A DNA stretch of 25,777 nucleotides, taken from the UHGV virus genome UHGV-1341054. The stretch is one strand, 5' to 3'. This stretch comes from a virus. Position 1 is the stretch's first letter; the number at the start of each line of letters is the position of its first letter. The translations under genes and the position numbers were made by a program. The notes under the pieces were generated by a model. It had not been told where the DNA came from, did no database searches, and saw only the letters and a program-made list of their open reading frames with translations. Of the stretch, positions 2,780 to 23,059 are shown in pieces.

Positions 2780-3174
2780 TACCATCTGCTTAAACGAACA
2801 ATATGTCTTACTTTTGCGGACCACTTCCCTTTGGTTTTGTTGACTACCGCCTGCGCCAGCCTTAACTCGCTTTCATAATCAGCCTTGCGCCCATCGTTTT
2901 CCGACAGCAAATAGCCTTCAACTTGTGGTACGGTCAGATAGTCCTGATCAACATTAAGTGGTCCTGTGGGTGCTCTGAACGGCGTTAGTTGCTTTGCGTT
3001 CCAGTTAAATCGAATACGTACGTCACGAACGGCAAGGGTTGCATACCCATGCACGGTACTTTCGTAACCTAGTTTTGTTTCACCTGCATGACATGACGTG
3101 ATTTTGCAGTCAAGCAACGTCCAGTCCATTTCCTTAGCTTGTTCAACTGTTAGCTTCTGCTCTTCGTACATCAA
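2779..3174 (-). CDS. Hypothetical protein, about 130 aa
   Basis: ORF-track TTG start at 3174; a more likely ATG at 3171..3169 overlaps the stop of the upstream gene (translational coupling). Confidence 0.55.
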   Translation of the reverse strand: MMYEEQKLTVEQAKEMDWTLLDCKITSCHAGETKLGYESTVHGYATLAVRDVRIRFNWNAKQLTPFRAPTGPLNVDQDYLTVPQVEGYLLSENDGRKADYESELRLAQAVVNKTKGKWSAKVRHIVRLSRW

Positions 3175-4275: not shown

Positions 4276-4351
4276 TGGTGGCCCCTACCGGACTTGAACC
4301 GATGACCGTGCGATTATGAGTCGCCAGCTCTAACCACTGAGCTAAGGGGCC
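4276..4351 (-). tRNA. tRNA with anticodon CAU, most like tRNA-Ile2 (lysidine type); Met not excluded
   Basis: Minus-strand 76 nt GGCCCCTTAGCTCAGTGGTTAGAGCTGGCGACTCATAATCGCACGGTCATCGGTTCAAGTCCGGTAGGGGCCACCA. 7-bp acceptor stem, D and T arms, anticodon loop CTCATAA, encoded CCA. Closely resembles E. coli ileX as recalled from memory. Confidence 0.85.
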
Positions 4352-4462: not shown

Positions 4463-4665
4463 CACTGATCCTTCGAAGCTATTTTAAATATCGGCCATAC
4501 CAATGTTACGGCTACTGCCACCAACGCCCCGTCCGATAAAACCGACAGGATTGTGCTGGTGAAATCCACCAGCACGGACAGCTTGAGCACCATGCTCCCT
4601 ACTCTCCAATTGTTGTGGTTACCGGTACTGATCTCCGGCTTAGCGACCCCGGCTACTGACTGCAT
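4462..4665 (-). CDS. Small membrane protein, 67 aa from ATG 4665, or 43 aa from internal ATG 4593
   Basis: Hydrophobic C-terminal half (ALVAVAVTLVWPIF). Internal ATG at 4593 has SD GGAGAG; the 4665 start has a weak RBS. Coupled to the downstream 34-aa ORF. Confidence 0.3.
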   Translation of the reverse strand: MQSVAGVAKPEISTGNHNNWRVGSMVLKLSVLVDFTSTILSVLSDGALVAVAVTLVWPIFKIASKDQ

Positions 4666-4733
4666 TGCAGTGTGTGAACTCGCCTCGTGTGTCGCTGGGG
4701 CATTTCTTTCCGCGCATCAGTCTGCGCATCAAC

Positions 4734-4809
4734 CACAACGGAAAGAGCATTGGCTAACCAGGCTCGCCGACTCTTCACGATTATCGGCTCAATGCTCTTA
4801 CCTGTTGTG
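4734..4809. repeat. Conserved-arm hairpin E2 (CACAACGGAAAGAGCATTG ... CAATGCTCTTACCTGTTGTG)
   Basis: Left arm 4734-4752, right arm 4790-4809, about 19 bp with mismatches and one extra T in the right arm. The 37-nt loop holds an inner hairpin GCCGA...TCGGC. Confidence 0.4.
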
Positions 4810-4987
4810 CGCTCCGTTTCGTGGAGCTAACGGCGGGTGATCGGGCCGCACCAGACTGGACTTATTTCAGCGTTATGCTCATGCCAGAGAATCAAACTGT
4901 GATGGTCGGTGCTGAACTCCGACACAGGGTTGTAGCAAGCCCCGCAAAGCGCGCACTACTGTAGTTGCGGCACATCAGCCTGTGCAT

Positions 4988-5088
4988 TCACCACAATGTT
5001 GAGAACACTGGTTGTCACGCTGCAACGCAACATTTATTCGTAAATTGGGATATGACCCCGTTACGACAGTGTTCTCAACGTTGTAGTG
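4988..5088. repeat. Long hairpin E3, 14-bp perfect core stem with CACAA/TTGTG-type base
   Basis: TGTTGAGAACACTG (4997-5010) pairs with CAGTGTTCTCAACG (5067-5080); the flanking CACCACAA and TTGTAGTG extend the stem imperfectly; 56-nt loop. Confidence 0.35.
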
Positions 5089-5224
5089 CCGGTTACGGTT
5101 CCGGCCAGGTCTCTTCCTCAACGGGGTGTTCTCCATACGGGCTACCGTTTATTGGTCGTTCCTGCGGTTTATGTTGTGAAGCCAGATGCTTATCTTCTGG
5201 TTGCTTCTAAGAGCTGCACTTCAT

Positions 5225-5311
5225 CACAACGGTAAGGGTACTTCGTAGGGATTCGAACCCTCTGCCAAGCACGGCGATCTCCGACGTCGCAAAATACCCT
5301 TACCTGTTGTG
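5225..5311 (-). ncRNA. tRNA-like fragment (T-arm mimic) enclosed by conserved-arm hairpin E4, directly 3' of tRNA-Thr
   Basis: Arms CACAACGGTAAGGGTA (5225-5240) and TACCCTTACCTGTTGTG (5295-5311). Interior contains GGGTTCGAATCCC (T-stem-loop with TTCGAAT) but no matching D or anticodon arms and no CCA. Right arm ends 1 nt from the tRNA-Thr 3' end. Confidence 0.35.
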
Positions 5312-5312
5312 T

Positions 5313-5388
5313 TGGGGCCGATTAACGGACTCGAACCGCTGACATCCTGCTTACAAGGCAGGCGCTCTACCAACTGAGCTAAATCGGC
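5313..5388 (-). tRNA. tRNA-Thr (anticodon UGU)
   Basis: Minus-strand 76 nt GCCGATTTAGCTCAGTTGGTAGAGCGCCTGCCTTGTAAGCAGGATGTCAGCGGTTCGAGTCCGTTAATCGGCCCCA. Canonical cloverleaf, anticodon loop CTTGTAA, encoded CCA. Confidence 0.9.
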
Positions 5389-5390
5389 AC

Positions 5391-5465
5391 TGGCGATGGT
5401 GAGTGGATTCGAACCACCGACCAGTTGGTTAACAGCCAACTGCTCTACCGCTGAGCTACACCATC
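5391..5465 (-). tRNA. tRNA-Asn (anticodon GUU)
   Basis: Minus-strand 75 nt GATGGTGTAGCTCAGCGGTAGAGCAGTTGGCTGTTAACCAACTGGTCGGTGGTTCGAATCCACTCACCATCGCCA. Canonical cloverleaf, anticodon loop CTGTTAA, encoded CCA. Lies 2 nt upstream of tRNA-Thr. Confidence 0.9.
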
Positions 5466-5662
5466 AATTACCGGGTACGTCTCCGGCAAGGGCTTCCACC
5501 TTCGTATGCTTTTCGGCGCACCGCGCCCTGGCTGCAATTCGGTAACAGGGAGTGCATGACCCTGGCTTCCGGCGTAGTTAGCGCCTTCCGCATGACGGGA
5601 TATACCCGCTTAGGTTTGGAACTGTCCAAATGCTGTTAAGCACCGGCTGCTGCGCGAGTTGC

Positions 5663-5745
5663 CACAACAGATAAGGACGCTGCCAAGAAAGACCTGACCC
5701 TTCTCATTCATCTGGTTAATCACACCAGCGCCCTTACCTGTTATG
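5663..5745. repeat. Conserved-arm hairpin E5 (CACAACAGATAAGGACGC ... GCGCCCTTACCTGTTATG)
   Basis: Left arm 5663-5680, right arm 5728-5745, 15 of 18 complementary; lies upstream (in minus sense) of the tRNA-Asn/Thr pair. Confidence 0.4.
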
Positions 5746-5926
5746 ACTCCCCGTTCTTTAATACACAGACGGGAAAACTCTGCGGTCGATTTCTTGACGG
5801 GGGGCGACTCATACCCCGTGGCGTCAGGCTTCTTAGGCCGCTACCATCATCAGATCATCGTTTGCATTTACTTTAATGGTCGGTTTCTAAACCGCCGCAA
5901 AGTCGCTAACCATGACGAAAACACTG

Positions 5927-5951
5927 AAAAAAAGCCCACCCGGAGATGGGC
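5927..5951 (-). terminator. Candidate rho-independent terminator (minus strand)
   Basis: In minus sense: GCCCA-TCTCCGGG-TGGGC followed by TTTTTTT (A-run 5927-5933 on the plus strand). Confidence 0.45.
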
Positions 5952-5970
5952 AAATACGCTACATCTCACA

Positions 5971-6049
5971 CAAGAAAGAAGCCGACTGCCTGAGCTGGAT
6001 CCACTTTCAAATGCCCGCAGAAAGGGATCACAAGTCGGCTTCTTTCTTG
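5971..6049 (-). ncRNA. Large hairpin (17-bp perfect stem plus inner inverted repeat), candidate structured sRNA ending at the 5927-5951 terminator
   Basis: CAAGAAAGAAGCCGACT (5971-5987) pairs perfectly with AGTCGGCTTCTTTCTTG (6033-6049). Inner arms GATCCACTTTC and GAAAGGGATC. The overlapping ORFs on both strands look spurious. Confidence 0.3.
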
Positions 6050-6265
6050 ATGCGGCACTCTCTCCGCCCGTCACCGCTCTGTCTCGGTTGTCGCGTTTGC
6101 CACGCCAGCCGTAACGAGGTTTAAAGTCTTTGCACGTTTCCATCACTCGACTGCCGTCTGTGGCTGTTCGTTGCGGCGGGGGTGCCTCCCCCTGGGGATA
6201 TCCCCGGCCTTACCCCATTCTTTCAAGACACAATGCAAGGCCACATCCGCATAGGTGCATTACCG

Positions 6266-6331
6266 CAACATTAAGGAGACTCAGGGCAAAAGATACTCGC
6301 CACAAAAAATCCCTATGCCTCCTTAATGTTG
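6266..6331. repeat. Hairpin with 13-bp perfect stem (CAACATTAAGGAG ... CTCCTTAATGTTG)
   Basis: Perfect reverse-complement arms at 6266-6278 and 6319-6331 with a 40-nt loop; no adjacent T-run. Confidence 0.35.
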
Positions 6332-6552
6332 AGGATGTGCATTGATGATGACCCGAAGCAGCCTGGCCCACTAAGCACGTTTCTCTGCCAGATCATCATC
6401 ACTGCACGCCCTGAATGCATTGCCATCCGTGGCGTTGAGGTCGCTTGTTGTTTACTCCGCAAAATGCACTTTTGGAGAACACTTTATGGAGCATCATCAG
6501 TTCCTGCTGACCTGTTCTTGCCATTTGCACGGGCGCCTGGCTTACGCATTAT

Positions 6553-6579: not shown

Positions 6580-6714
6580 TGCTGGTGGGTTAAGATTTGG
6601 CGAAAAAGAGTGACGCTCTACCTGCTGCAAGCCGTGTTGAGATATCACCCCACCAGCACGAAAAATTTTAGGACAACCACACAAAACAATCAATGTGTTA
6701 TTTTGTTCAACTCA

Positions 6715-6742: not shown

Positions 6743-8063
6743 TCATCTCCCGTACAAATCTTCAACACCGCCGTTCTTTTTATCCCACTCATTCGCCCAT
6801 ACCCGACAGGAATCAATGATTTCCTGTCGGCAGTCGCCCTGCATGAATGGCAACTCGTCATGAAAGTTGCTTGGGATGCAGGCCACACTGAAAACAGTAT
6901 CAAATCCGGCGTCCTTGATGCCTTCCATCGTCTCAGGGCGCATTTTTAACTCGTCAACCGGGGCATCTTTGGCATCCATAATGCGTCGATGCAAGCGAGG
7001 ATAATCCTCTTCAAGGTACGCCATAATCTTATTGTGAAGGCATTCGTCGATGTCGTTGTTCCAGTCTTTGGCAAACTCAGGCATTCGGTAATAAAGTGGC
7101 GTTCCCCAAACTGACGGGATCACATCCATTGTCAGCAAACGGTTTGTTCTAATTTGCAGGTGATAGTTAGCAGTAAGTAATGATTCTCCCCGCTGTCCGG
7201 TTTCCATCTCAAGAAAGTCGTTTTTTTCCGCATGAATAAAATCTGNNNNNNNNNNGGCCATGTGGGTATTCGTGAATATAAGCAACCGCATCCCTGCCAT
7301 CGTACATGAGCGGGAAAGATTCCGGGCGTTCTGGCATACCGCAGGCGCGATTCAGATCATACCCAAGCTGAGAACATTCACTCTTTAACTTCTCGATGAT
7401 AGCCTGAGCAGAAGCAAGTTTCTTACGCAGGCTTACGTTCTCGCCCTGGTATTTAATGCTCACTTTGTTCAGTTCGGATACACGCTCTTTAAGTTCGCGG
7501 CGTTCTCTTTTAAGGGAACGGTTATCTCTCTCGCTGTCATCCAGGCGTTTTGCCAGGCTGGACGGGAAGTCTTTCTTATAGCGCCGTAAATCTGACTCTG
7601 CCGCTGCGCGTAGCGTGTTGGCCTGCTGGAGACTGGCTTCAAGTGTACCGATCTCTCTTTTATGCTGTTCTGCATACTCAGTAATGATTTCACCCAGCGT
7701 CTCCGCCGTGGCGCTCATACCGGTAGCATGGGAAAAACTGATCAGGCTGGCGTTAACGACACGCTGAAATTCTTCGAACTGATCAACCAGGGCGTTGTAG
7801 TCTGATGCACCCGCATCCAGTAGCTGATTGATGTCATTTACAAGGTTATCTGCTGTGGCAAGAGTGCTTTCAAAAAGGCGTTTTGACAGGTCATCTCCGG
7901 CAGTCCGCTTTTGTAACAACTGTATCTGGCTGCGGAGTGTATCGATATCCGCAGAAATGATGTCTTCNNNNNNNNNNATCAAGGACAAGGCAGAGTCAAT
8001 GGGTTGGAAAGAAGGTCAGAAATGATGTCTTCGGTGGAGGAGGTTACTGCTTGCTGACTCATG
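6743..8063 (-). CDS. Hypothetical protein, about 440 aa, N-terminal coiled-coil region; reading frame broken by two 10-N gaps
   Basis: ORF-track pieces 7209..7988 and 6743..7300 are protein-like only on opposite sides of the N run at 7246-7255, consistent with one gene and an arbitrary gap length. The likely true start is ATG at 8063 (SD AAGGA): MSQQAVTSSTEDIIS, whose EDIIS is encoded by a 16-mer duplicated either side of the N run at 7968-7977. Confidence 0.5.
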
Positions 8064-8101: not shown

Positions 8102-8142
8102 ATTTTATTAGTAATTAAGTTTCTTTGGAATACCCATAAGTC

Positions 8143-8164
8143 AAAAAACCCGCCATTGGGCGGG
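8143..8164 (-). terminator. Rho-independent terminator (minus strand)
   Basis: In minus sense: CCCGCC-CAAT-GGCGGG followed by TTTTTT; 14 nt downstream of the stop of the 8178..8498 gene. Confidence 0.55.
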
Positions 8165-8177
8165 TATCAGAGGTTAA

Positions 8178-8498
8178 TCAAGGATGTATTACGGACCATA
8201 ACCAGATTGAGGCAAGGGCTAAAAGCAAGATAAGGATTGCAGCCAGCAACCATTTCATTCGCAAGAAACCTGGCTGATTAACGCCATTGGCGTATTCTGG
8301 ATCGGACATCTTTCCCATCCAGCACGCAGAAAGCAGCGTGGCATTTTCATTCATATCAAGTTCGTTCAGGGCTTCCCTGATGAGCGGGGCAGTAACCGCT
8401 TTGCGGGCGCTCTTCATAACGATGCTTCGCGTTCTGCCTGCGTCATCTGCGAATGCCAGACTGACGTAGTGACTTCTCAGCAAGGCGCGCACTCCCAA
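8178..8498 (-). CDS. Small tail-anchored membrane protein, 106 aa (C-terminal TM helix WLLAAILILLLALASIWLW)
   Basis: ORF with a single hydrophobic helix at the extreme C-terminus, followed by a terminator; function not assignable from sequence. Confidence 0.5.
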   Translation of the reverse strand: MGVRALLRSHYVSLAFADDAGRTRSIVMKSARKAVTAPLIREALNELDMNENATLLSACWMGKMSDPEYANGVNQPGFLRMKWLLAAILILLLALASIWLWSVIHP

Positions 8499-8680
8499 TC
8501 ATCAGCTAAAGAACTGTCCGGCGTGATATGGACTTTTTCGCCAGTAAAAAGGTTTGTGTAATCCACGTTCCCATTCACTTGCTTTTCAATTCCGATGCAC
8601 ATGGAAGGACTCCAACCACTGCGACGGGCAACAACACAAACTCCAGCGGGAACAAGTTCAGCCACGGTACTTAAATGCAA
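8477..8680 (-). CDS. Possible small protein, 67 aa, TTG start
   Basis: TTG start with GGAG about 10 nt upstream, 13 nt after the VRR-NUC stop; overlaps the next gene by 22 nt. Weak support. Confidence 0.25.
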   Translation of the reverse strand: MHLSTVAELVPAGVCVVARRSGWSPSMCIGIEKQVNGNVDYTNLFTGEKVHITPDSSLADDWECAPC

Positions 8681-8693
8681 AACATTTTCTCCG

Positions 8694-9167
8694 TTAAGTT
8701 AGATCAACATATTCCGTGATAGCTTTGATGGCTTCATCGGCACTTCGCGCCTCAAAGCAGTAGTAACCTGCTTCTGTGAGGCGTGTCATCCAGACGATTT
8801 GTTCGGGAGTTAGACGATTATTCCCTTGCTTCATCTCGATGCGCATTCCGTGATAACCGCCACGCGCAAGATCAATCGAAAGGTCTGGATAACCTTTCTT
8901 TTGCCCCTCAGCGACCATTTTGATAGCTGTCCTTATTCCACGAAGTCCTCCGTTCGGGGTGGCGTGTGTATGTTCGTACACATATCGCATGTGGCGATAG
9001 AGCCAATCCAGAACGCGAACCTGCTCGTAGTGTTCATGGTTCCCTTTGATTAGTTCGGGGTTATTTGCAAGCTCTAGAAGAGCGGCTGCGTGCAGGGTTT
9101 TTGCTTCAAATCCGTAATGGCGTCTTTTTGTTCGATTGTAATTTCTAACACATGTTATAGCTTTCAT
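8694..9167 (-). CDS. VRR-NUC domain nuclease (PD-(D/E)xK superfamily), 157 aa
   Basis: Motifs EHYEQVRVLDWL ... GYPDLSIDLARGGYHGMRIEMKQG ... LTPEQIVWMTRL match the VRR-NUC pattern (E...Q...WL, PDL, hExK). The N-terminal ~44 aa extension and exact start are uncertain; the AATTTCTAACAC motif lies inside codons 5-10. Confidence 0.7.
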   Translation of the reverse strand: MKAITCVRNYNRTKRRHYGFEAKTLHAAALLELANNPELIKGNHEHYEQVRVLDWLYRHMRYVYEHTHATPNGGLRGIRTAIKMVAEGQKKGYPDLSIDLARGGYHGMRIEMKQGNNRLTPEQIVWMTRLTEAGYYCFEARSADEAIKAITEYVDLT

Positions 9168-9326
9168 TAGCTGAAATTAACAACAAAATGATTAAAATGC
9201 CAAAACCATGCTAAATACTACTCAAGGGAGGTAGATATGCAACTGCTCGGACCTGCTTTAAGTTCAATGGATGACATGCATCAAAGAACTGGGTAAATCG
9301 CATTAAATCTACCCAGCATATTATTT

Positions 9327-9593
9327 TCAATAGTTTATCTTATCCTGTTCGGTAATACTGCTAATTGTCTTATCAATGGCTACTTTCCACCCATCAAAGT
9401 TTAAATTATCAATACGCTCGACCAATTTATCCTCAGTATGAGGATAATAAATCCAACTCCATTCATTAGGACTATCAATCTTTATCAGTGTAAAAACACG
9501 CTTATAACGATGAAAGTCAAGTTCGTATCCCTTTGACAATGCGTAATCTTTTAGATCATCAATCGTGAAAAGCCGATTCTTTCGCATAATCAC
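9327..9593 (-). CDS. Hypothetical protein, 88 aa, in a visibly AT-rich segment (moron-like)
   Basis: ORF coupled to the upstream gene (ATGA overlap at 9590-9593); base composition looks more AT-rich than neighbours by eye. Confidence 0.5.
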   Translation of the reverse strand: MIMRKNRLFTIDDLKDYALSKGYELDFHRYKRVFTLIKIDSPNEWSWIYYPHTEDKLVERIDNLNFDGWKVAIDKTISSITEQDKINY

Positions 9594-10024
9594 CCCGCCA
9601 TGCTGTATTTTTCTATAGATTCGTCATAACTGGTGTACAGATACGGTTCTGTATCATCAGCATAGCTTGCGACTTCAAGTTGGTGGACCTGATTGTAAAC
9701 CGCATCGTTTTCCAGACGTTCTGCCGAATACAAATGCGCCGCGAGAAGAGTCAATGCCGGGCGACTCATGCTATAGATAGTTGCCACATCGCCATCCACA
9801 ATCTGACCAAAGTCAGTAATTCCGCGCTCCAGCAATTGCGTTTTGATAGCAGGCCACCACGGACCATACAGCCGGTACAATAACGGTTCTTTTTTCAACC
9901 TTTCGACCATTACGCCAAGATAGGCATCCAGGTATTCACCTTCTCCCCTGCCAACAAGTGCCTGTGGCAAAATTTCTTCAAGGTAAGATTCCGTTGGTTT
10001 TACTGTGTCGATCAATGTTGTCAT
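9590..10024 (-). CDS. Hypothetical protein, 144 aa, acidic C-terminus; immediately downstream of the DarB-like gene
   Basis: ATG at 10024, 36 nt after the giant gene stop; C-terminal third is rich in D/E/Y (EVASYADDTEPYLYTSYDESIEKY). Confidence 0.6.
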   Translation of the reverse strand: MTTLIDTVKPTESYLEEILPQALVGRGEGEYLDAYLGVMVERLKKEPLLYRLYGPWWPAIKTQLLERGITDFGQIVDGDVATIYSMSRPALTLLAAHLYSAERLENDAVYNQVHQLEVASYADDTEPYLYTSYDESIEKYSMAG

Positions 10025-10060
10025 TTTAATTCGGCCTCTTTCGAGGCCGCTCCATATCTG

Positions 10061-13000
10061 TTAAGCCGCCGCTTCAATGATTTTACGCACTTCATCAATT
10101 GAATAGCGCGTCGATACCATCCAGGCCGGACGGTCAAAGTCCACATCGGCAACCGGGTTAACTTCGAAGTTCCAGAAACGCCCACCGATTTTCTTGATGG
10201 CATCTTTTGCGTTGCGAATAGATGAAGATCCGGGCATATCTGCAATGAGATAAACAGCACCAGCGTCTTCACTTACGCTCCACCAGCGACCGCGTACACG
10301 TGCTTTGGCGCGAATAGGCTTATCGTTTACCACGATAATGTAATCATCATTCGCTACCTCGTCAGCCTTGATCTCAGCTACATCAGCCTGTTCTTCCCGT
10401 TCAGTCTTAGCCGCCGCAAGACGTTCAGCAATCTCTGACTCCGTAGCGCCACCATTTTTAAGCGACACAAAGTCATCCCACGTTGCAGATTTCAGAGCAT
10501 CAGGCAAATCTTCCACATACCCGCCCGCTTTTAAGGCGTTAGCATGGCGTATAGCCATCCCGACAAGACGATTCAAGCTATATGCATCTGCGAAATCATC
10601 ACGGGTAATGCTTTTATCCTCAAATGCATGAATTAACGCCCCCGCTTTAATCCAGACTGTTGCAGATGTTTCAAGCGGATTATCGGCATTAGAAATGCTT
10701 AGTTGCGCACTGTAAACTGACTGATCTGCCAACGAGGCAAGTGACGCCCAACCATCTGCATCACTTTGCATTTTGTACTGATCAAACAGCGCATCACGCC
10801 ATGCATTTAGCGCCATGCGTGTTTTCTCAATTTTGGTTGTGATTTTGGACGTTCGCAGTTGTTCGAACATCTGCGAAATCTCCGAACCATTGGTGAAGGC
10901 TTTCATGCGCCCCTGGAAATCGCGGAAAGAAAGCACGCCTCGCCAGTACGTTTCCAGGCCTTCTCCATTTGGCTTGCGGAACAAGCTGCGGACATCTTCC
11001 TGAGTCACTTTTTCAAGTGAACGCCCGGAGAGATCGCGCCCTGCCATCCAGCCATCGAACGCCTTGACCACATCATCCATAGTGGCCTGAGCGCCCCATG
11101 CCTCCATACCTTGCTCATAATCGAAGCCAAACAATGCACGGAGAAAACCTTCTGCCTCTGAAATACGAAGTGGGTTATCACCTGTCTGGATTTTCGCGAC
11201 TTCGCGTTTTAATGCTTCGTCGTTTACATCAGGATAAATCCATTGTTCAGGTGCTATCTCGTCACTTCCAGATGCGCTAATTTTTTGACCAATCATCCCG
11301 CCATAGGTAAAGGCCATTTGAATCTGACCATTGGCGTTACGATAAGCCCAATAGTTTACATCCGGTGCTCCTTGCCAACCGCCACGATCTTTCCCGGTTA
11401 CCCGCATAACACCGCTACGAATAGCGTCATAGAATTGATCGCGAGAAAGAGAGGTTGAAAGCTGGTGGCTTTGAACACCACGTGCCGCTATTTCTCGTGA
11501 TTCAGCCACCCCCTCTTCAAATGTTACCGCTTCAACCACTGAGTCAAACGGTAATGTCATGGTTGAGCCAGGAGAACGAGAGTAGCGACTTGCTCTATCC
11601 AGCCAGGCGACGCGGCAGGTGTATTGCGCTTTTTCGCCCTCAATTTGTGTCACGCGCACAACCGCCGTTGTCTCGTGTTCAGCATCAATGACTGCACGGT
11701 AGTAACTACCTTTATGCAACAGGATGTTCTTGCCAGTGCGCATATACTCCTGCGGGTTCTGAATAACATCGATACTGATATCCAGCACACCAGACTTAAT
11801 AGCACGCTCCACATCACCACGAGAGCGTTTCATAACAGTATCCGCGTCCTTCGCCCTGGTGATTGCAAATCGCAATTCACGCACTCTTTTTTTAGCTTTG
11901 CTTAGTGCTGAAAGCGTATATTTCTGTCCGTTTTTGTTGGTGCCGCTCTTAATCAGTCCATCCAGATCACTCTGGTATCGTTGCGCCTGCTCCATCGCGC
12001 TTTTCAGTTCTGCCTCCATCATGCCGATATCCTTCCCGGCAGCATTCGCCGCTTTCAGGTAGTTATCGAGAGCATTATTGGCTTCGCGTTGCGCTTTAAG
12101 TCGCAGGCGTTCCTCACGTTCTTTCGACTGACGAGCCATAATTGCGCGTCGTTCTTCCGGATTTGCCGCCAGCATAATGGCGCGCTCATCAGCGTCATCC
12201 GCATCACCATTGGCGATCTCTGACATATCGGAGGTCATCACCATCTTGATCCAGTCTTTCTTACGTTTAAGCGTATCCAGACGGAAGTCATCGAATGTGC
12301 CTTTGCCACAATAATAGTGAACATTAACCTTCTCTTGCGGAGAACCTACGCGCGCACCGCGCCCATTTCGTTGGTCGATACTGGCTGGAGTCCAGGGTAG
12401 TGTCAGGTGGTGAATATCGGTCGTTCCAATATGCAGGTTGATACCTACTTCGGCTTTCTTGTTACAGATAATGATCCGCGTGCGCCCTTCGTTATAGTCG
12501 GCAGCAATACCTTCCATCCCCTCAAGGCCAGCATCATTTTTAGCAGAGAGATAATCCTCATATTGGGCCAGTTTACTGTAGTAGGTTTCCCATGCGCCTT
12601 CTTTGTATTCACCGTCTTTGTTTGGCGTCGGTTCGGTCGGTTTTTTGACCTTTTTCAGCTTAACACCACCAGCCTGGCTAACAGTCGTAGCATTGATAAT
12701 GCCTATCTCCTGCTCTGACATTTGCAACGCACTGGCAATGATGCGACGTAGTTTCTGGTGCTGGGCTTTCTCGTCGATAAAGATAATTTGCTTACCGTTC
12801 TTAAGCCCTTCACGCAGGTTCTCGATAAGTGCGGCATACTTAGGCGGGATCGGGTGTGACACCTGTTTCATGTCGATGCCTGCATCAGCAATTGCCTTGA
12901 GTATTTCAGCCTCCAGGTCAATGCTGGCACGCAATTCGACATGATTTGGATGCTCACTAAATGTTGTAGCTACAACCTTGCTGGTACGGGTACTGACCAG

Positions 13001-16000
13001 GCCTCCGGTCGCATCCTCCTCTGCTTCTTCTGCATCGTCTGCCGCTTTCCCACCAGCTACTTTTGGTAGGTTATTAGCTATAGACTTCACCTGTTCAGTA
13101 AGCTCTACAGGGAACTGGAATGTGATAGCGCTGGCGTAAAGATCCGGGTCGATAGCGACCTTATCCATGTCGCGAATGATAGAGAAAATGAAATCATCCG
13201 GTTTCCCGCGAGTGATATTGCCTTCATCATCGACAGTGACGTCATCACCACGACTTAACTCCTGCGCGCGTTTACGAAGCTCTTCATAAGCTGCTTGCTG
13301 CTCTGGAGTCATTGGGATCTGCAAGGTGTTTTCGACGATATCCGGGATTTTTACCGTTGCACCAACATCGGAAGCCGTTTTAAGCGTTGTCCAGCGGTGG
13401 AAAATGCCACGCAGACCATCAAGGTTCTGGAAGCCCACCAGCCCCTGTTTCTCTTCCACTTCGCCAGAAATTTTCTGGACCTGAACAGTGGCTGTTTTAC
13501 CGAACACTCGCACAAAGTCGTCAGGGGTAATAATCCCCATGTGCATCCACTCGTGCTGAGGGATCACCGTTGACAGCATGTTGAAGGCGTCAATAGGGCT
13601 ATTAACCAGCGGAGTTGCTGTCAGCATTACGACGCCGCGCCCATTGTGACGTTTCATCATGTACGCAGCTTTTACAGCCATGTCACGGGCCATTTTGGAT
13701 ACCGCCGGATTAGGTAAATATGCCAGTTGCCCCGCTTCACGCCCGGCACCAAAGGAGTTGCGGTAGTTGTGCCCTTCGTCGGCAATTACGCTATCGAAGT
13801 TCATATCCTCAAAGTACGGGATATTCTGCTTCTTCGCTGTACCGGTATTCGCGGCCTGGTCCTTAATCTTGTTCTTCTTCTGCGCATCACGGTGCTTGCC
13901 TGACGCCAGGTCAAGACGCCCCATTTCGGCGGCATTAAAGACAGCCTGCTGTGAGTTTTCTCCGATGGTTTCATCGCGCAACGGGATAGATGCGAACTGC
14001 TCTTTTGTCATGATGACCGTTCGCCAGTTCGACGATGGGATCATGTTCATGCGTTGAGCGATAACGGCACTGGCGGATTCTTTAACAACATTACGGGTGA
14101 TCGGATTGCCGTCGTTATCAAGTCGCGGGGTGCCGTCCTGGTCGAGCACTGGGGCAGTCTGAATATTTCCGTCACCATCGCGCACTTCGTCCAGACCGAT
14201 AAACATCATATTGGCGAAGGCATCTGCACTGTAGAAGCTCTGTGCCTCGTGATACCAGTTCTGGTATACGGCCTTTGGAACAACGATACAGGTACGTTTG
14301 GTTCGCCCGGTTTCAAAGTTATAGGCTTCCAGTGCCAGCGCGGTCGTCGTTTTACCCAAACCAGTTCCGAATCCCATAATCCCGCGCCCATCTTCCGACA
14401 GACGACGAACTTCTTCGTTCTGGTAAGAAAGCGGTATACGTTTCCCGCTGATGCCTTCAAGCCCCAGGGGTGCGTCTGAATGGGTAAATGGAATATAACC
14501 GTTAAAGGCGTCGTTATAATCGCGGGCGATCTGATCTGCCTGCGGGTGAGTTCTTAACCAGTCGTTAAAACTCGTCTCAAGCTGGGCGATTTTGTCCAGG
14601 TACTCGTTAGCGTTCTGTCCGCGCGGTTTAACACCGTTCAGGTAGTTCTCAAGCTGATTCAGGAAGCCATCTTTGTTATTCGCTTTCTTGAACTCGTTCC
14701 CGTTTTTGCCGTTTACGGTTCGTAGCTGGTAGCCAGTAAATACCCCGTCCTTACCTTCGTAATCGTCCGGGGATACCAGAATGCCGTTCTCAACCTTAAG
14801 GTCGGGTTCTGTATACTTAAACTCGTCATAGCCCTGCTCTGCCAGGAACTCTTTTATCAGGCGGCGATCCAACCACCGTGCGTTAAGGTTTACCGTGACT
14901 TTGTTCAGCGGTGTAAACGTGCGTTTCTCTTCGATTTTTGAAAGCTGGCGCTCAAAGTTGGCCTTCCGCTCTCCTGTGGACGCGTCTCGCCAGCCCACCA
15001 GCAGTGCCACTTTTGATTTAATATCACCGCTAGTGGCACGGCCCATCGGTAGCAGGCAACCATATCCATCAATAGCGATATCGTCGAATTTCGCCAGGTA
15101 TTCCAGTGCTTCATCGTCGTCTTCGGGCAGTTCGCCTTTAAACGCCTCGCGGAAGTCATCAAGATTGATAGGATTAAGGGCAACATCGCTGAAAAGGTGT
15201 GTCACAACCTGTTCCGGACGAGTGAAATCAATACCAGCAGCCCCTTTGCTAACATCAAGCCGTCCGGACAGCAGATCGGATGCTTCACCGTCCTGATTGA
15301 CGTTCCCGGTGAATGTCAGCCAGTTCTTCGCGCCCGCTTCGGTAATATCGTTTAGCTTAATAGCGTGTGGTGGGCCATATTTAGCAACTTCGGCAGCCGT
15401 CAGACGTGCGGCATCAGCCAGTTCATCATCGACGTTTTCACCAAGGTTACGCTTATCCAGCGCTTTATTGATAAGTTGTCCGATCAGCGCACCGCGCATA
15501 ATGCGCTCACGGTCTTTTTCGCGTTGTTTCCCAGCAAAGCGAATCATTGCCGCTACTTCATCACTGATAACCGATGGATAGTCGGAAGCGATCGCGGATA
15601 TCTGCCCCCATGACAGAGCCAGAATGCCGTTTGTTGATTGGAACGTTGTTTGCAGATCACCGAATGTCGAAACACCATATCGGCTTACATCAAGTACGGA
15701 GGATTTGGTTGTCGCATCTTTAACCCATTTCAGGCCATCAAACTCGTGCCAGATGCCACCTACAAGGCGCTTATCTCCTACTTTGGCACCCTGCCATGCC
15801 TGAGTAGTTACGCCAAGCAAATCCCAATTAATGCGGCTTTCAAAGCGGCGCGATAGAGCGGTTTTCATCGACTCATTGGATACACGACCGTCCTTTTTCA
15901 CCACCAGGGTGTTGCGGAAGCTGGTGCGTTCCATGTCGCCGTAAACGAATCGCTTCCCTTCGGTTGTAAACCACTTGCCTTTCAGAAAGGTATCCCAAAG

Positions 16001-16903
16001 GACATTTGCCGATTTTAGCGTCGCATCATCCGTATCGGGGATCATCTCCAGGAAGGCTTCCGGGTGTTTACGCAATACCCATACGTCCACAACTGTATCT
16101 GTACCGGATTCGCTGAACGTACCGGAAGGCATACGATGTGCGCCCAGAAATTCCGCTTTACGACTAACCTTGTCACGCAGTTTCTTGTATTTAGTGCCGT
16201 CGGTCATGCCGTTAGGCACCACCAGCACGATCAGTCCGCCAGGTTTAACCTTGTCAATGGTACGAAGCACAAAGTAGTTACCTACGTTCTTTTCGTTCGC
16301 ATAGGCAGGATCTAATCCAGCCACACCGGAACGACCTTCCCCGAACGGCACATTACCCACCGCGTGGTCATACATTGCGTCTTTGGCTGCAAGCGACTCA
16401 AACGCTCCGATATTCACATCATCTTCCGGGTGCAATAACTGGTTAATTCGACCAGAAATCGGAGACAATTCGGCGCTCGTCATTATCATTCCCTGCCGCT
16501 TCGTCTCCTGGAAAATTCCCGTACCCGCTGACGGTTCAAGAACATGACCGCTATCAATGCCGTAATCCGAAAATAAATCCCAGATACCTTCTGCCATAAA
16601 TTGCGGCGTGTAATACTCGTACTGACTTCCTTCGCCATCCGTCAGACCACCTTCCCCGGTGTATCCTGCAAGGATCTGACGCTGTTCGTCTGTCAACTGA
16701 GAGCCATCGAAACCGGGAGGCAAAGCGTTAAGAAGATTGACTGCCGCGTTATTAGCTGCCCGGCGAGTCTTCTGAATGCTGACGCCATCTACCTTCTTAA
16801 CGCCGAAGGCGGCGATTGCACGTGGTTTATGTAACCGACTGATAAGGTCAATCAGTCCACCAATGCTGGTGGCTGCATTGATTGAATTGAGTAATTTGTC
16901 CAA
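10061..16903 (-). CDS. darB: Giant 2280-aa protein: N-terminal N6-adenine methyltransferase domain plus SF2 helicase, DarB-like antirestriction protein
   Basis: Single uninterrupted 6.8-kb ORF. MTase motif I VLEPSAGTGIF and motif IV GNVPFG near the N-terminus; helicase Walker A GFGTGLGKTT, motif II VIADEGHNY, motif III LTATPLVN, motif VI QRNGRGARVG. Size and architecture match P1 DarB (2255 aa) as recalled. Plus-strand ORFs inside are antisense shadows. Confidence 0.8.
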   Translation of the reverse strand: MDKLLNSINAATSIGGLIDLISRLHKPRAIAAFGVKKVDGVSIQKTRRAANNAAVNLLNALPPGFDGSQLTDEQRQILAGYTGEGGLTDGEGSQYEYYTPQFMAEGIWDLFSDYGIDSGHVLEPSAGTGIFQETKRQGMIMTSAELSPISGRINQLLHPEDDVNIGAFESLAAKDAMYDHAVGNVPFGEGRSGVAGLDPAYANEKNVGNYFVLRTIDKVKPGGLIVLVVPNGMTDGTKYKKLRDKVSRKAEFLGAHRMPSGTFSESGTDTVVDVWVLRKHPEAFLEMIPDTDDATLKSANVLWDTFLKGKWFTTEGKRFVYGDMERTSFRNTLVVKKDGRVSNESMKTALSRRFESRINWDLLGVTTQAWQGAKVGDKRLVGGIWHEFDGLKWVKDATTKSSVLDVSRYGVSTFGDLQTTFQSTNGILALSWGQISAIASDYPSVISDEVAAMIRFAGKQREKDRERIMRGALIGQLINKALDKRNLGENVDDELADAARLTAAEVAKYGPPHAIKLNDITEAGAKNWLTFTGNVNQDGEASDLLSGRLDVSKGAAGIDFTRPEQVVTHLFSDVALNPINLDDFREAFKGELPEDDDEALEYLAKFDDIAIDGYGCLLPMGRATSGDIKSKVALLVGWRDASTGERKANFERQLSKIEEKRTFTPLNKVTVNLNARWLDRRLIKEFLAEQGYDEFKYTEPDLKVENGILVSPDDYEGKDGVFTGYQLRTVNGKNGNEFKKANNKDGFLNQLENYLNGVKPRGQNANEYLDKIAQLETSFNDWLRTHPQADQIARDYNDAFNGYIPFTHSDAPLGLEGISGKRIPLSYQNEEVRRLSEDGRGIMGFGTGLGKTTTALALEAYNFETGRTKRTCIVVPKAVYQNWYHEAQSFYSADAFANMMFIGLDEVRDGDGNIQTAPVLDQDGTPRLDNDGNPITRNVVKESASAVIAQRMNMIPSSNWRTVIMTKEQFASIPLRDETIGENSQQAVFNAAEMGRLDLASGKHRDAQKKNKIKDQAANTGTAKKQNIPYFEDMNFDSVIADEGHNYRNSFGAGREAGQLAYLPNPAVSKMARDMAVKAAYMMKRHNGRGVVMLTATPLVNSPIDAFNMLSTVIPQHEWMHMGIITPDDFVRVFGKTATVQVQKISGEVEEKQGLVGFQNLDGLRGIFHRWTTLKTASDVGATVKIPDIVENTLQIPMTPEQQAAYEELRKRAQELSRGDDVTVDDEGNITRGKPDDFIFSIIRDMDKVAIDPDLYASAITFQFPVELTEQVKSIANNLPKVAGGKAADDAEEAEEDATGGLVSTRTSKVVATTFSEHPNHVELRASIDLEAEILKAIADAGIDMKQVSHPIPPKYAALIENLREGLKNGKQIIFIDEKAQHQKLRRIIASALQMSEQEIGIINATTVSQAGGVKLKKVKKPTEPTPNKDGEYKEGAWETYYSKLAQYEDYLSAKNDAGLEGMEGIAADYNEGRTRIIICNKKAEVGINLHIGTTDIHHLTLPWTPASIDQRNGRGARVGSPQEKVNVHYYCGKGTFDDFRLDTLKRKKDWIKMVMTSDMSEIANGDADDADERAIMLAANPEERRAIMARQSKEREERLRLKAQREANNALDNYLKAANAAGKDIGMMEAELKSAMEQAQRYQSDLDGLIKSGTNKNGQKYTLSALSKAKKRVRELRFAITRAKDADTVMKRSRGDVERAIKSGVLDISIDVIQNPQEYMRTGKNILLHKGSYYRAVIDAEHETTAVVRVTQIEGEKAQYTCRVAWLDRASRYSRSPGSTMTLPFDSVVEAVTFEEGVAESREIAARGVQSHQLSTSLSRDQFYDAIRSGVMRVTGKDRGGWQGAPDVNYWAYRNANGQIQMAFTYGGMIGQKISASGSDEIAPEQWIYPDVNDEALKREVAKIQTGDNPLRISEAEGFLRALFGFDYEQGMEAWGAQATMDDVVKAFDGWMAGRDLSGRSLEKVTQEDVRSLFRKPNGEGLETYWRGVLSFRDFQGRMKAFTNGSEISQMFEQLRTSKITTKIEKTRMALNAWRDALFDQYKMQSDADGWASLASLADQSVYSAQLSISNADNPLETSATVWIKAGALIHAFEDKSITRDDFADAYSLNRLVGMAIRHANALKAGGYVEDLPDALKSATWDDFVSLKNGGATESEIAERLAAAKTEREEQADVAEIKADEVANDDYIIVVNDKPIRAKARVRGRWWSVSEDAGAVYLIADMPGSSSIRNAKDAIKKIGGRFWNFEVNPVADVDFDRPAWMVSTRYSIDEVRKIIEAAA

Positions 16904-16977
16904 AGGAGATCCCCTTCAAAGCCGTGAACTCCGCACATTGCGGTACGGCTTGAAAGGGTATGGAGTGTGTTAATTTG

Positions 16978-17057: not shown

Positions 17058-17113
17058 ATGAAAATCACACACTCCCCATAGTTTATGTTCGTTTGTTAAC
17101 CAGAGGAGTAGTT

Positions 17114-17599
17114 ATGGTGAGTACCGATCCTCGTTGGCTGATGGAAGCCCGTAAACATATTGGCCTGACAGAAATCAAAGGGGCTAAACACAATCCTGAA
17201 ATCGTCCAGTTCTGGCGAGACATCAAGCGCGGCGGCATTAAAGATGATGAAACGCCGTGGTGCGCGGCCTTTGTTGGCGCAATGTTAGAGCGTGTTGGTA
17301 TCCGTTCCAGCCGCTTCGAGTCAGCAAAATCCTACCTGACATGGGGTGAGGCGCTCGATACGCCAGCGTATGGATGTATTGCTGTATTTACTCGCGTGGG
17401 CGGCGGGCATGTCGGCTTTGTCGTTGGTCGCCGGGCGAATGGTGATTTGCTCATTCTTGGGGGCAACCAGGGCGATGCCGTGAATATCCGCGCTTTCCCA
17501 ACATCGCGCGTTTCAGGTTATCGCTGGCCTACTGGAGAACCACGGAATACTGCCTTACTTCCTAATGGTGAGGCCGCCACATCCACCAGCGAAGCGTGA
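17114..17599 (+). CDS. TIGR02594-type (NlpC/P60- or CHAP-like) putative peptidoglycan hydrolase, 161 aa
   Basis: Preferred start ATG 17114 with SD GAGGAG (ORF track gives TTG at 17093). Motifs DDETPWCAAFVGAML, GGGHVGFVVG and LGGNQGDAV fit the conserved Cys/His hydrolase pattern of this family. Only clear plus-strand gene in the window. Confidence 0.7.
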   Translation: MVSTDPRWLMEARKHIGLTEIKGAKHNPEIVQFWRDIKRGGIKDDETPWCAAFVGAMLERVGIRSSRFESAKSYLTWGEALDTPAYGCIAVFTRVGGGHVGFVVGRRANGDLLILGGNQGDAVNIRAFPTSRVSGYRWPTGEPRNTALLPNGEAATSTSEA

Positions 17600-17606
17600 C
17601 TCCACA

Positions 17607-17634
17607 CCCCGGTACAGGCCGGGGTTTCTGTATT
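17607..17634 (+). terminator. Rho-independent terminator for the plus-strand hydrolase gene
   Basis: CCCCGG-TACAGG-CCGGGG followed by TTTCTGTATT, 8 nt after the stop; sits between convergent genes. Confidence 0.5.
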
Positions 17635-17656
17635 AAGCTGTCATAATTTACCCACA

Positions 17657-18619: not shown

Positions 18620-18725
18620 CTGTAATCCTTGATATATCAATGCGAGTTCCAAGTTTTGGTATATCAGCGTGGGTGTCTAAGACCTACGCCTCTGATAAAT
18701 CTACTCAAATAGATTTATCGCCCTC

Positions 18726-19861: not shown

Positions 19862-19874
19862 TCATTCCCTCCGG

Positions 19875-21557: not shown

Positions 21558-21628
21558 GAGTCACCGCGAAATGGTTTCCAGTTTCGCGGCAGCATAATCA
21601 GTGTGTTATTTCAGGGGGGTGAGAATCT

Positions 21629-22990: not shown

Positions 22991-23059
22991 AATACACTCC
23001 CCTTACATAGAAAGCAGGAAGTGTAAAAAGTGTGTGATTTATGGACTTACACGAAAGTG

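Follow-up and report, generated by a model that had tools for sequence, protein, structure and literature searches.

A Conserved Core Block of Mixed Functions between darB and pmgS in a D6-Like Plasmid-Prophage

Introduction

Resistance genes can be carried by phage-plasmids resembling D6 and P1, which are common in Escherichia coli, Shigella, and Salmonella and whose small "hypothetical" genes are largely unassigned. We analyzed a cluster of such genes in a stretch of 25,777 nucleotides from UHGV virus genome UHGV-1341054, referred to here as the window. Five open reading frames (ORFs) follow a darB-like ORF at positions 8178-10024, all of them on the minus strand: ulx, an lxc-like gene, the nuclease gene pmgM, a gene for a 67-amino-acid protein resembling Tad2/DUF2829, and a pmgR-like gene. 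A prediction made earlier from the nucleotide sequence alone (the original prediction) described them as five tightly coupled genes of an anti-defense or moron island attached to darB. The coordinates are as it gave them, but the genes do not form one string, being split by a gap of 159 nucleotides.

We read the region as the conserved core of a D6-like plasmid-prophage, organized in two transcription units of mixed functions, and consider this interpretation likely. New here are the assignment of D6 orf13 to the Lxc family and that of D6 orf11 to the Tad2/DUF2829 fold, both being listed as hypothetical in D6 and RefSeq; apart from these two, the block represents ordinary, already described P1-family biology.

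The Source Element and Its Relatives

The window comes from a D6-like, P1-family phage-plasmid, and the block is part of its conserved core. At the nucleotide level the region is 99.8% identical to nonmobilizable plasmids of approximately 80 kb from Shigella dysenteriae, 99% identical to an E. coli plasmid, 93% identical to plasmids of Escherichia fergusonii, and approximately 75% identical to many E. coli and Shigella plasmids of about 90 kb. Megablast of the region against cultured phages gave no match; the closest cultured phage, the P1-family plasmid-prophage D6, was detected at the protein level only. Its annotated gene order is the same (darB, ulx, orf13, the pmgM-like orf12, orf11, the pmgR-like orf10, and pmgS), and the remaining window follows the D6 map through pacA, lpa, tRNA genes, pmgS, the block itself, darB, an orf16-like lysozyme gene, repL, pro, prt, ddrB, ddrA, darA, and hdf. 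In pairwise comparison with the E. fergusonii relative, the ratio of nonsynonymous to synonymous substitution rates (dN/dS) is 0.04-0.13 for all five genes, which are therefore genuine protein-coding genes under purifying selection.

Gene order was compared across 31 IMG/VR loci (L007-L037) that had been retrieved with Ulx as the query. In 27 of them all five genes occur in one and the same order with near-identical spacing. The remaining four comprise one locus that stops inside pmgM (L016), one cut within ulx (L037), one that does keep the 67-amino-acid gene (L034), and one with divergent copies (L035). Across the D6-like loci, proteins of the block are 37%-89% identical; protein by protein, identity to the window is 55%-80% for Ulx, 51%-67% for the 88-amino-acid (lxc-like) ORF, 58%-87% for PmgM, 27%-56% for the 67-amino-acid protein, and 41%-64% for PmgR. 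Among the D6-like loci no insertion into the block was seen, and gene order and spacing are identical in L007-L036, so that variation takes the form of allelic divergence only.

Beyond these, distant phage-plasmids with the same backbone (among them L035, from Citrobacter; L124, a 94-kb contig; and L127) carry darB, ulx, a gene of approximately 90 codons, pmgM (in some cases preceded by one or two very small membrane ORFs), a DUF2829-type gene, pmgR, and pmgS. In P1 the genes from pmgL to pmgS lie about 70 kb away from ulx-lxc, and res/mod and IS5 follow lxc, whereas phage JK004 joins both P1 regions in one stretch, darB-ulx-lxc-...-pmgL-pmgM-...-pmgR-pmgS; the P1 layout is therefore probably the rearranged one. 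Because the same gene order recurs in some 30 diverged relatives, the block is a fixed conserved core of mixed functions. It is not an exchangeable moron island: the variable cargo envisaged by the original prediction is at odds with five genes that keep their order and spacing both in D6-like loci and in distant phage-plasmids, and the picture of the region is corrected to that extent.

One locus, L015, bears on how alleles of the block are exchanged. Over 4525-6432 (compared with window 9590-11500), its DarB C-terminus is 99% identical to that of the window, but it has a D6-type ulx (77%) and D6-type downstream genes. A recombination breakpoint therefore lies between darB and ulx, and the ulx-to-pmgR block exists as exchangeable alleles.

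The features of the region are listed in Table 1.

Table 1. Genes and noncoding features of the region (positions in the window)
Feature	Position	Strand	Basis
darB-like gene, 2280 aa (amino acids)	10061..16903	-	ORF list; annotated as SNF2-related protein (near-identical plasmids) and "similar to P1 darB" (D6)
ulx, 144 aa	9590..10024	-	tblastn, PHROG 1629
lxc-like gene (probable), 86 aa from ATG 9587 (88 aa from GTG 9593, ORF 9327-9593)	9327..9587	-	hhalign, synteny
pmgM, 157 aa	8694..9167	-	Pfam VRR_NUC, orthology
DUF2829/Tad2-like gene (predicted), 67 aa, = D6 orf11	8477..8680	-	fold, Pfam of orthologs, synteny
pmgR-like gene, 101 aa from TTG 8483 (106 aa from first TTG; ORF open to 8498)	8178..8483	-	BLASTP, PHROG
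Perfect 12-bp hairpin just 3' of lxc-like stop	9288..9317	-	terminator scan; -15.8 kcal/mol, z -3.9
Promoter-like blocks GTTGCATAT ... CCTTGAGTAGTAT upstream of pmgM	9215..9243	-	TTGCAT, 16-nt spacer, TAGTAT
Intrinsic terminator of unit 2 (predicted), 7-bp GC-rich stem and six T	8142..8165	-	terminator scan; -13.3 kcal/mol, z -3.9
AAWTMACACACT copy upstream of darB	16964..16975	-	repeated intergenic motif, putative late-promoter box
AAWTMACACACT copies	2710-2721, 4669-4680, 6692-6703, 16964-16975, 21600-21611, 23029-23040	-	
AAWTMACACACT copies	11874-11885, 17062-17073	+	

Ulx and DarB

Judged by its sequence, the 144-amino-acid protein is a full-length homolog of Ulx, a known counter-defense accessory. 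It is 78% identical to D6 orf14 and, in tblastn comparisons, 50% identical to P1 Ulx (144 of 144 residues) and P7 OlxA, and it matches PHROG 1629 ("Ulx-like anti-restriction") at 2.2e-52; its dN/dS is 0.08. The gene starts after a gap of 36 nucleotides from the darB-like stop, and ulx lies directly after darB in P1, D6, JK004, and the distant loci as well. P1 virions contain Ulx, which "aids DarB localization" (PMC9024508). Six Dar proteins, Ulx among them, are ejected with the DNA, and Ulx acts jointly with DarB and DdrB in protecting it from type I restriction by EcoK and EcoB (PMC12810830); the P1 ulx gene is dispensable for plaque formation (PMC10695390). By analogy with P1, the window protein would help to load DarB into the head.

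The original prediction had tied this protein to anti-restriction, which membership of the Dar system bears out, and had remarked on an acidic, Asp/Glu/Tyr-rich C-terminus. Charge calculation agrees (isoelectric point 4.4, net charge -12, with -8.4 in the last 45 residues), and the D/E/Y-rich acidic tail is conserved. DNA mimicry, which had been proposed from this acidity, was rejected, nothing that we tested lending it support and the documented role being DarB loading.

A GC-rich 6-bp hairpin (GGCCTC GAAA GAGGCC) was also observed in the darB-ulx gap at 10030-10050 on the minus strand, where it overlaps the ulx ribosome-binding region.

A Probable Lxc Homolog

For the small gene that follows ulx, the ATG at 9587, which lies 2 nucleotides after the ulx stop and is preceded by GGGGTG, is favored over the GTG at 9593. 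The original prediction had described the longer, 88-amino-acid ORF as AT rich and suggestive of recent acquisition. The composition is as described: GC content is 34.5% for the ORF compared with 48.9% for the window, only 0.6% of 267-bp windows are as low, and the lowest tract of the whole window, at 9020-9440, takes in the adjoining 159-nucleotide intergenic gap, so that base composition is not uniform. The origin is not as suggested. Orthologs fill the same slot throughout the family, mostly with lowered GC of 36%-43% (D6 40%, L012 43%, L030 42.5%, L034 36%, but L035 52%), and for this reason recent horizontal acquisition was rejected; low GC is a lineage feature of a conserved gene, whose dN/dS is 0.06 and whose product appears to be a remote homolog of Lxc.

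In P1 the corresponding slot is that of lxc, which encodes 82 amino acids and overlaps ulx by 4 nucleotides. Profile comparison points to the same assignment. An exhaustive HMMER search widened the window protein's family to proteins of 84-102 amino acids, with L035 contributing an intermediate sequence. Comparison by hhalign of the resulting 19-sequence family with an alignment of Lxc from P1, JK004, and a Salmonella plasmid gave a probability of 87%, an E value of 3.7e-6, and a score of 34.3 over 65-77 collinear columns. Of 200 column-shuffled Lxc alignments none reached that score (10.05 +/- 2.14, maximum 18.55), and unrelated small families gave probabilities below 0.4%. When a hidden Markov model (HMM) of the family was run against the 429 six-frame ORFs from P1-type loci, the three Lxc proteins took the first three ranks (E 1.7e-5, 0.005, and 0.02; next 0.31), and in the reverse direction the best match of the Lxc HMM among 776 ORFs of D6-type loci was the family member of L035.

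Three results weigh against this assignment. BLASTP found no similarity between the 88-amino-acid ORF and Lxc, hhalign against Lxc was insignificant when the bridging sequences were left out, and the P1 C1 operator consensus was not found in the window. PHROGs places the 88-amino-acid protein and Lxc in different families. A scan of viral contigs with P1 Lxc returned only copies 99% identical to it, a word-indexed search with the 88-amino-acid protein only near-identical sequences, and a PDB sequence search only spurious matches. Taken together with the positional and profile evidence, we regard the 86-amino-acid protein as a probable remote homolog of P1 Lxc (Bof), a modulator of the C1 repressor.

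According to the P1 record, Lxc enhances C1 binding at all of its operators. D6 has a C1-type repressor (orf1, annotated "similar to P1 C1") that is 21% identical to P1 C1, and the S. dysenteriae plasmid with 99.8% identity carries a C1 homolog (73% and 63% identity) immediately beyond the window. Both C1 and Lxc are thus extremely diverged between P1 and D6 compared with neighbors that are 50%-57% identical, a pattern that fits a co-evolving pair. If the assignment is right, orf13 supplies the co-repressor hitherto missing from the D6 immunity system. All family members with readable context sit directly after darB-like and ulx-like genes, and this invariable linkage, kept even in distant elements, could mean that immunity control and Dar loading are functionally connected.

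The C1 homolog of the S. dysenteriae plasmid (L001 2361-3397, NZ_CP026816, beyond the left end of the window) is split between two frames at approximately 3010-3020 and annotated as two hypothetical proteins. The split represents either a real frameshift, in which case this prophage would be repressor-defective, or a sequencing error.

PmgM, a Stand-Alone VRR-NUC Nuclease

A stand-alone VRR-NUC nuclease had been predicted in the block, and an HMM search agrees: the 157-amino-acid protein matches Pfam VRR_NUC (PF08774) with 29.8 bits against a cutoff of 23.8. Its core is 57% identical to P1-type PmgM and 92% identical to D6 orf12, and an N-terminal segment of about 40 residues is basic and variable between lineages. 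Residues D95, E111, K113, and Q123 are invariant in seven orthologs and align with the active-site motif of psNUC, from which PmgM is identified as a stand-alone PD-(D/E)XK nuclease with intact catalytic residues. One solved structure is matched strongly by the family profile, namely psNUC (4QBL; E 4.8e-24 over the whole core), a dimeric enzyme whose affinity for four-way junctions is sub-nanomolar and which resolves these junctions symmetrically (PMC4103454). By analogy, PmgM is most likely a dimeric resolvase of Holliday junctions or other branched DNA that acts on replication and recombination intermediates. P1 pmgM is nonessential (PMC10695390). The role of PmgM most likely lies in DNA metabolism and is not an obvious counter-defense function; as an ortholog of P1 PmgM whose nearest solved relative is a Holliday-junction resolvase, it does not fit the anti-defense gene that had been proposed.

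A Minimal Tad2/DUF2829-Like Protein

The only Pfam family to recur among the 67-amino-acid protein and its positional orthologs is PF11195 (Tad2-like). Scores rise from 15.4 bits in L124 (the C-terminal domain of a 172-amino-acid protein) through 22.4 in L123 (a 46-amino-acid fragment) and 24.0 in L035/P0011 to 31.0 in P0015, a syntenic ortholog above the 25-bit cutoff. P0015 lies in the order darB, ulx, 92 amino acids, 55 amino acids, pmgM, P0015, pmgR, pmgS, and the profile of the 67-amino-acid family retrieves it from 5.8 billion sequences with an E value of 1.3e-7.

An AlphaFold2 model of the protein, built from 14 sequences, is confident, with a predicted local distance difference test score (pLDDT) of 89. 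Tad2/DUF2829 proteins are its top structural matches in two libraries. In a Foldseek search of BFVD the best match was a 66-amino-acid "DUF2829 domain-containing protein" (template modeling score 0.66), with two "Thoeris anti-defense 2-like" proteins in the top ten, and DUF2829 proteins of 65-66 amino acids occur in other phages. The modeled topology (helix, three strands, short helix, final strand) fits the description of Tad2 (bioRxiv 10.1101/2023.05.01.538930) minus helix alpha2. The RxGW motif, which holds the equivalent of W25, is kept, and the C-terminal LAxDW motif is exact.

Ligand-binding residues were taken from the same preprint and mapped via the ungapped C-terminal motif with the sequence and numbering of ModTad2. 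W25 is retained as W23; the positions of N26 and W73 are occupied by S24 and V50, and that of D79 by S56, next to an acidic D55. In the orthologs L123, P0015, and P0011 an aromatic residue at the W73 position and the Asp are kept.

Against these agreements stand a number of observations. The window protein itself scores 14.2 bits against PF11195 (E 0.067), below the 25-bit cutoff; equivalents of the ligand residues N26 and W73 are missing, as is alpha2, the helix of the Tad2 dimer interface; Foldseek of the model against the PDB gave no significant match; and hhalign against two solved Tad2 sequences was weak (score 16, with shuffles at 9.3 +/- 1.8). Sequence searches of the PDB with the 67-amino-acid protein, the family profile, and P0015 returned spurious matches only (de novo beta-trefoils, E6AP), a word-indexed search with the 67-amino-acid protein found near-identical sequences only, and tblastn of P0015 against phages gave a single insignificant match (E 0.3), which falls on a DUF2829 gene. 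A Pfam match to OB_NTP_bind was rejected, being sub-threshold, limited to two members, and not supported by the fold.

On balance the model and the orthologs make it very probable that the protein has the Tad2/DUF2829 fold. Function is another matter. DUF2829 includes proven anti-Thoeris sponges, and Tad2 proteins bind signals as varied as gcADPR, His-ADPR, N7-cADPR, and cCMP/cUMP (bioRxiv 10.1101/2025.08.24.671296). Because their signals differ so widely, an altered pocket does not exclude a sponge, and the protein may sequester an immune signaling nucleotide, a role that we put forward as possible rather than probable. It could be argued further that these proteins form a distinct minimal class of Tad2 sponges (64-78 amino acids, no alpha2, and in the D6 lineage no second ligand-stacking Trp) in a fixed slot between PmgM and PmgR, recognizing a signal that differs from those of canonical Tad2; we offer this more tentatively still and think it unlikely. 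The slot gene is absent from P1 and JK004 and present in D6-like and related Enterobacteria phage-plasmids. If the sponge role were true, these plasmid-prophages would possess, beside Dar, a second counter-defense directed at signaling; orf11 is in any case a concrete candidate for signal-sponge counter-defense and, if the fold is as modeled, a naturally minimal Tad2 fold.

Elsewhere the slot is built differently. In L124 (6333-6851) the DUF2829-type domain is the C-terminus of a 172-amino-acid protein, and in L123 (6080-6654) the slot appears split into ORFs of 145 and 46 amino acids, with the canonical Tad2 motif SWNPSVQDQLADNW kept.

PmgR with an Added Membrane Helix

The last gene most likely begins at a TTG (8483) with a GGGAG Shine-Dalgarno sequence 8 nucleotides upstream, and overlaps the stop of the 67-amino-acid gene as TTGCTGA. 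From sequence comparison, its product is an ortholog of PmgR, homologous over the N-terminal 70 residues or so. BLASTP against the P1-type PmgR of JK004 gives an E value of 7e-8 and 31% identity over 65 residues; PHROG 9115 (1.8e-33) and PHROG 3177 (3.3e-8) are matched; D6 orf10 is annotated "similar to P1 pmgR"; and an HMM of the family detects orthologs in L123 and L124. The start given by RefSeq in the S. dysenteriae plasmids (79 amino acids) cuts off the conserved N-terminus and is probably too short.

The tail-anchored membrane protein of the original prediction is recognizable in a C-terminal helix, whose best Kyte-Doolittle 19-mer scores 2.57 at residues 86-104. A C-terminal transmembrane helix is also found in PmgR of L030, L034, L035, and L124 and is absent in P1, JK004, and L123. 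The anti-defense role assigned to the protein finds no such counterpart in an ortholog of P1 PmgR, a protein needed for head-tail joining: P1 PmgR is essential, heads and tails are left unjoined when its gene is deleted, and virions gave no detectable PmgR (PMC9024508). The membrane helix argues against a purely structural virion role for D6-type PmgR.

The pmgS-like gene starts approximately 116 nucleotides downstream of pmgR, past the terminator. Two 10-base runs of N that represent masking lie within it (7246-7255 and 7968-7977), for which reason it is listed as two ORFs.

Transcription Units and Regulatory Elements

The sequence suggests a division into two transcription units, darB-ulx-lxc-like and pmgM-tad2-like-pmgR, parted by the AT-rich gap of 159 nucleotides at 9168-9326, which holds a stable hairpin and conserved promoter-like blocks. 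The hairpin, whose sequence is conserved in D6-like relatives, probably marks the end of unit 1, either as a weak terminator or by affecting RNA stability. In an alignment of the intergenic region from seven relatives, GTTGCATAT and CCTTGAGTAGTAT are the two best-conserved blocks, and they may represent a weak -35 and, after the 16-nt spacer, a -10, the putative promoter of unit 2. The predicted terminator of unit 2 folds better than any of 200 shuffled sequences.

The putative start of unit 1 lies at a copy of AAWTMACACACT, a motif found eight times in the window with at most one mismatch, compared with 0.31 expected; none of 100 shuffles reached eight. The four exact copies are intergenic and stand directly in front of darB, the divergent orf16-like gene, prt, and ddrB. 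By comparison with the -22 box of P1 LP26 and LPpmgL, AAWTMACACACT is a candidate D6-type Lpa-dependent late promoter. It was not found upstream of pmgM or pmgS, and the spacing of P1 late promoters does not fit the region upstream of pmgM. In P1, C1 operators rather than a late promoter govern pmgR and pmgS.

Two further candidates were discarded: ACTCTAAAAGCA, considered as a D6-type operator, does not recur, and TTGAGTAGTAT recurs no more often than expected by chance, if a possible relative in front of repL is set aside. On the minus strand at 18695-18718, upstream of the lytic replication gene repL, lies ATAAATCTATTTGAGTAGATTTAT, a near-palindrome of 24 bp. It has TTGAGTAG in common with the conserved block that precedes pmgM and is a possible operator for a D6-type repressor.

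Other Differences from D6

Elsewhere in the window, three tRNA genes lie on the same (minus) strand as pmgS: Met-CAT at 4276-4351, Thr-TGT at 5313-5388, and Asn-GTT at 5391-5465. Those of D6 are Ser, Thr, and Asn, in the opposite orientation relative to pmgS, and the segment has therefore been rearranged between the two elements. D6 orf17-19 (icd/ant-like; D6 19789-20917) are absent at window 17599-17657, between the orf16-like gene and repL, and orf23 and orf24 (DUF4145), which D6 has between prt and ddrB, appear to be absent as well.

A Model for the Region and Its Alternatives

The model that we propose builds on what the sequence itself shows, namely the homologies, the fold, the synteny, the catalytic residues, purifying selection, and the RNA hairpins; the activities of the proteins, the promoters, and the sponge role are inferred. 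Unit 1 would be transcribed from the putative late box upstream of darB. Ulx would be built into the head, where, as in P1, it would be needed to load DarB, and DarB would leave the capsid with the DNA and shield it from type I restriction. The diverged Lxc would, again by analogy with P1, join the C1-type repressor of the same element at its operators and make repression tighter, and the 12-bp hairpin would close the unit. Unit 2 would be expressed from its own conserved promoter-like element and stopped by a strong terminator. Its products would be PmgM, which probably trims branched replication or recombination intermediates; the 67-amino-acid protein, whose stripped-down Tad2/DUF2829 fold may sequester a host immune signaling nucleotide; and PmgR, a factor for joining heads and tails that here would be tethered to the membrane by its added C-terminal helix. 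Three observations sit uneasily with this model, in addition to those given above for the Lxc-like and Tad2-like proteins: a membrane anchor is oddly suited to a role in head completion, no Shine-Dalgarno sequence precedes the pmgM start codon, and a sigma-70 consensus scan did not call the GTTGCATAT and CCTTGAGTAGTAT blocks.

The original prediction amounts to a different account of the whole block, in which an anti-defense or moron island has grown on darB, with the AT-rich ORF as recent cargo, the acidic protein as a DNA mimic, and the nuclease as a counter-defense enzyme. Part of its anti-defense content stands, since Ulx is a component of the Dar system (PMC12810830) and the 67-amino-acid protein, on which the prediction had laid no stress, may with its Tad2-like fold act in counter-defense too; for the Lxc-like protein, PmgM, and PmgR it does not. 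The lowest-GC tract of the window does coincide with the 88-amino-acid ORF and the adjoining gap, and the EcoP1 res/mod genes and IS5 that sit after lxc in P1 demonstrate that the wider neighborhood can accept cargo. An island of this kind is nevertheless hard to reconcile with gene content and order that are invariant, without insertions, across some 30 D6-like loci, or with an AT-rich ORF that has same-slot orthologs at 51%-66% identity and probable homology to Lxc. Two of the five genes, pmgM and pmgR, are homologous to genes of replication-type or morphogenetic function and belong to the P1-family core; the phenotype of PmgR is morphogenetic, and P1 pmg knockouts without a plaquing defect leave antirestriction unchanged (PMC9024508). 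With DNA mimicry having gained no evidence at all, we consider this account quite improbable. The opposite extreme, that all five genes serve head assembly or DNA packaging as a late morphogenesis operon ("pmg" standing for putative morphogenetic function), draws on the position of the block between darB and pmgS, within the region of head and Dar genes. Junction resolvases are commonly required before packaging, as are T4 endonuclease VII and T7 endonuclease I, which would suit PmgM. Ulx is moreover found in the head, and the phenotype of PmgR concerns assembly (PMC9024508). Such an operon would have to accommodate the facts that P1 forms plaques without lxc, ulx, or pmgM (PMC10695390), that Lxc acts in immunity, that the repeated late-type motif is missing upstream of pmgM and pmgS, and that P1 pmgR and pmgS are under C1 operators rather than a late promoter; of the alternatives it seems to us the least probable.

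The other two alternatives concern single genes. The 86-amino-acid protein might work with DarB and Ulx as a Dar or capsid-loading accessory, its likeness to Lxc reflecting ancestry only. In every context examined, very distant elements included, family members directly follow darB-like and ulx-like genes; the start lies 2 nucleotides after the ulx stop; and the sole promoter-associated motif upstream is the putative late box before darB. P1, however, has the same ulx linkage together with a defined role of Lxc with C1, Lxc is not in the listed P1 virion proteins (PMC9024508), and the joint divergence of C1 and Lxc next to neighbors 50%-57% identical fits a co-evolving pair. We find an accessory of this sort improbable, though less so than either account of the whole block, and prefer the repressor modulator. 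For the 67-amino-acid protein the choice is closer. It may be no sponge but an AcrIIA7-like anti-CRISPR, an assembly or regulatory partner of PmgR, with which it is translationally coupled, or a protein that acts independently of a ligand, and we judge this to be about as plausible as the sponge itself. The DUF2829 proteins of demonstrated mechanism, however, are all signal sponges with varied ligands and pockets (bioRxiv 10.1101/2025.08.24.671296); the W25-equivalent Trp, an acidic residue beside the D79 position, and the LAxDW motif are kept; and DUF2829 proteins of 65-66 amino acids exist in other phages. Conserved core and mixed functions thus remain the reading that we favor for the region as a whole.

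Comparison with Known Systems

The nearest described system is D6 itself (NC_050154/MF356679), in which orf14-orf10 lie between darB and pmgS as five genes that agree with the window in order, strand, and spacing. Protein identities are 78% for Ulx, 64% for orf13, 86%-92% for PmgM depending on the stretch compared, 52%-54% for orf11, and 47%-52% for PmgR. The window block differs in being a diverged allele with a lower GC in orf13 (34.5% compared with 40% in D6); D6 lists orf13 and orf11 as hypothetical only, the Lxc-like and Tad2-like assignments having been made in the present analysis. P1 shares darB, ulx, and a small gene abutting ulx. It differs in that promoters of lxc have been mapped within ulx and in that lxc is followed by res/mod and IS5, whereas in the window the genes from pmgM to pmgR come next, which in P1 are some 70 kb away.

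Among the individual proteins, PmgM resembles psNUC in the active-site motif GYPDL...RIE(I/M)K and the conserved Gln, and differs from it by the extra basic N-terminal segment of about 40 residues. Like Tad2/DUF2829 proteins (SPO1 Tad2, ModTad2 9EIB, SptTad2, and AcrIIA7), the modeled 67-amino-acid protein has alpha1, the beta-sheet, a short alpha3, and beta5; it differs from Tad2 in having no alpha2 insertion and about 20 fewer residues. P1 PmgR (72 amino acids) is homologous to the window protein over the first 70 residues or so and is likewise encoded directly upstream of pmgS, whereas D6-type PmgR carries approximately 30 extra C-terminal residues that form the predicted transmembrane helix, and its gene follows the Tad2-like gene instead of pmgQ.

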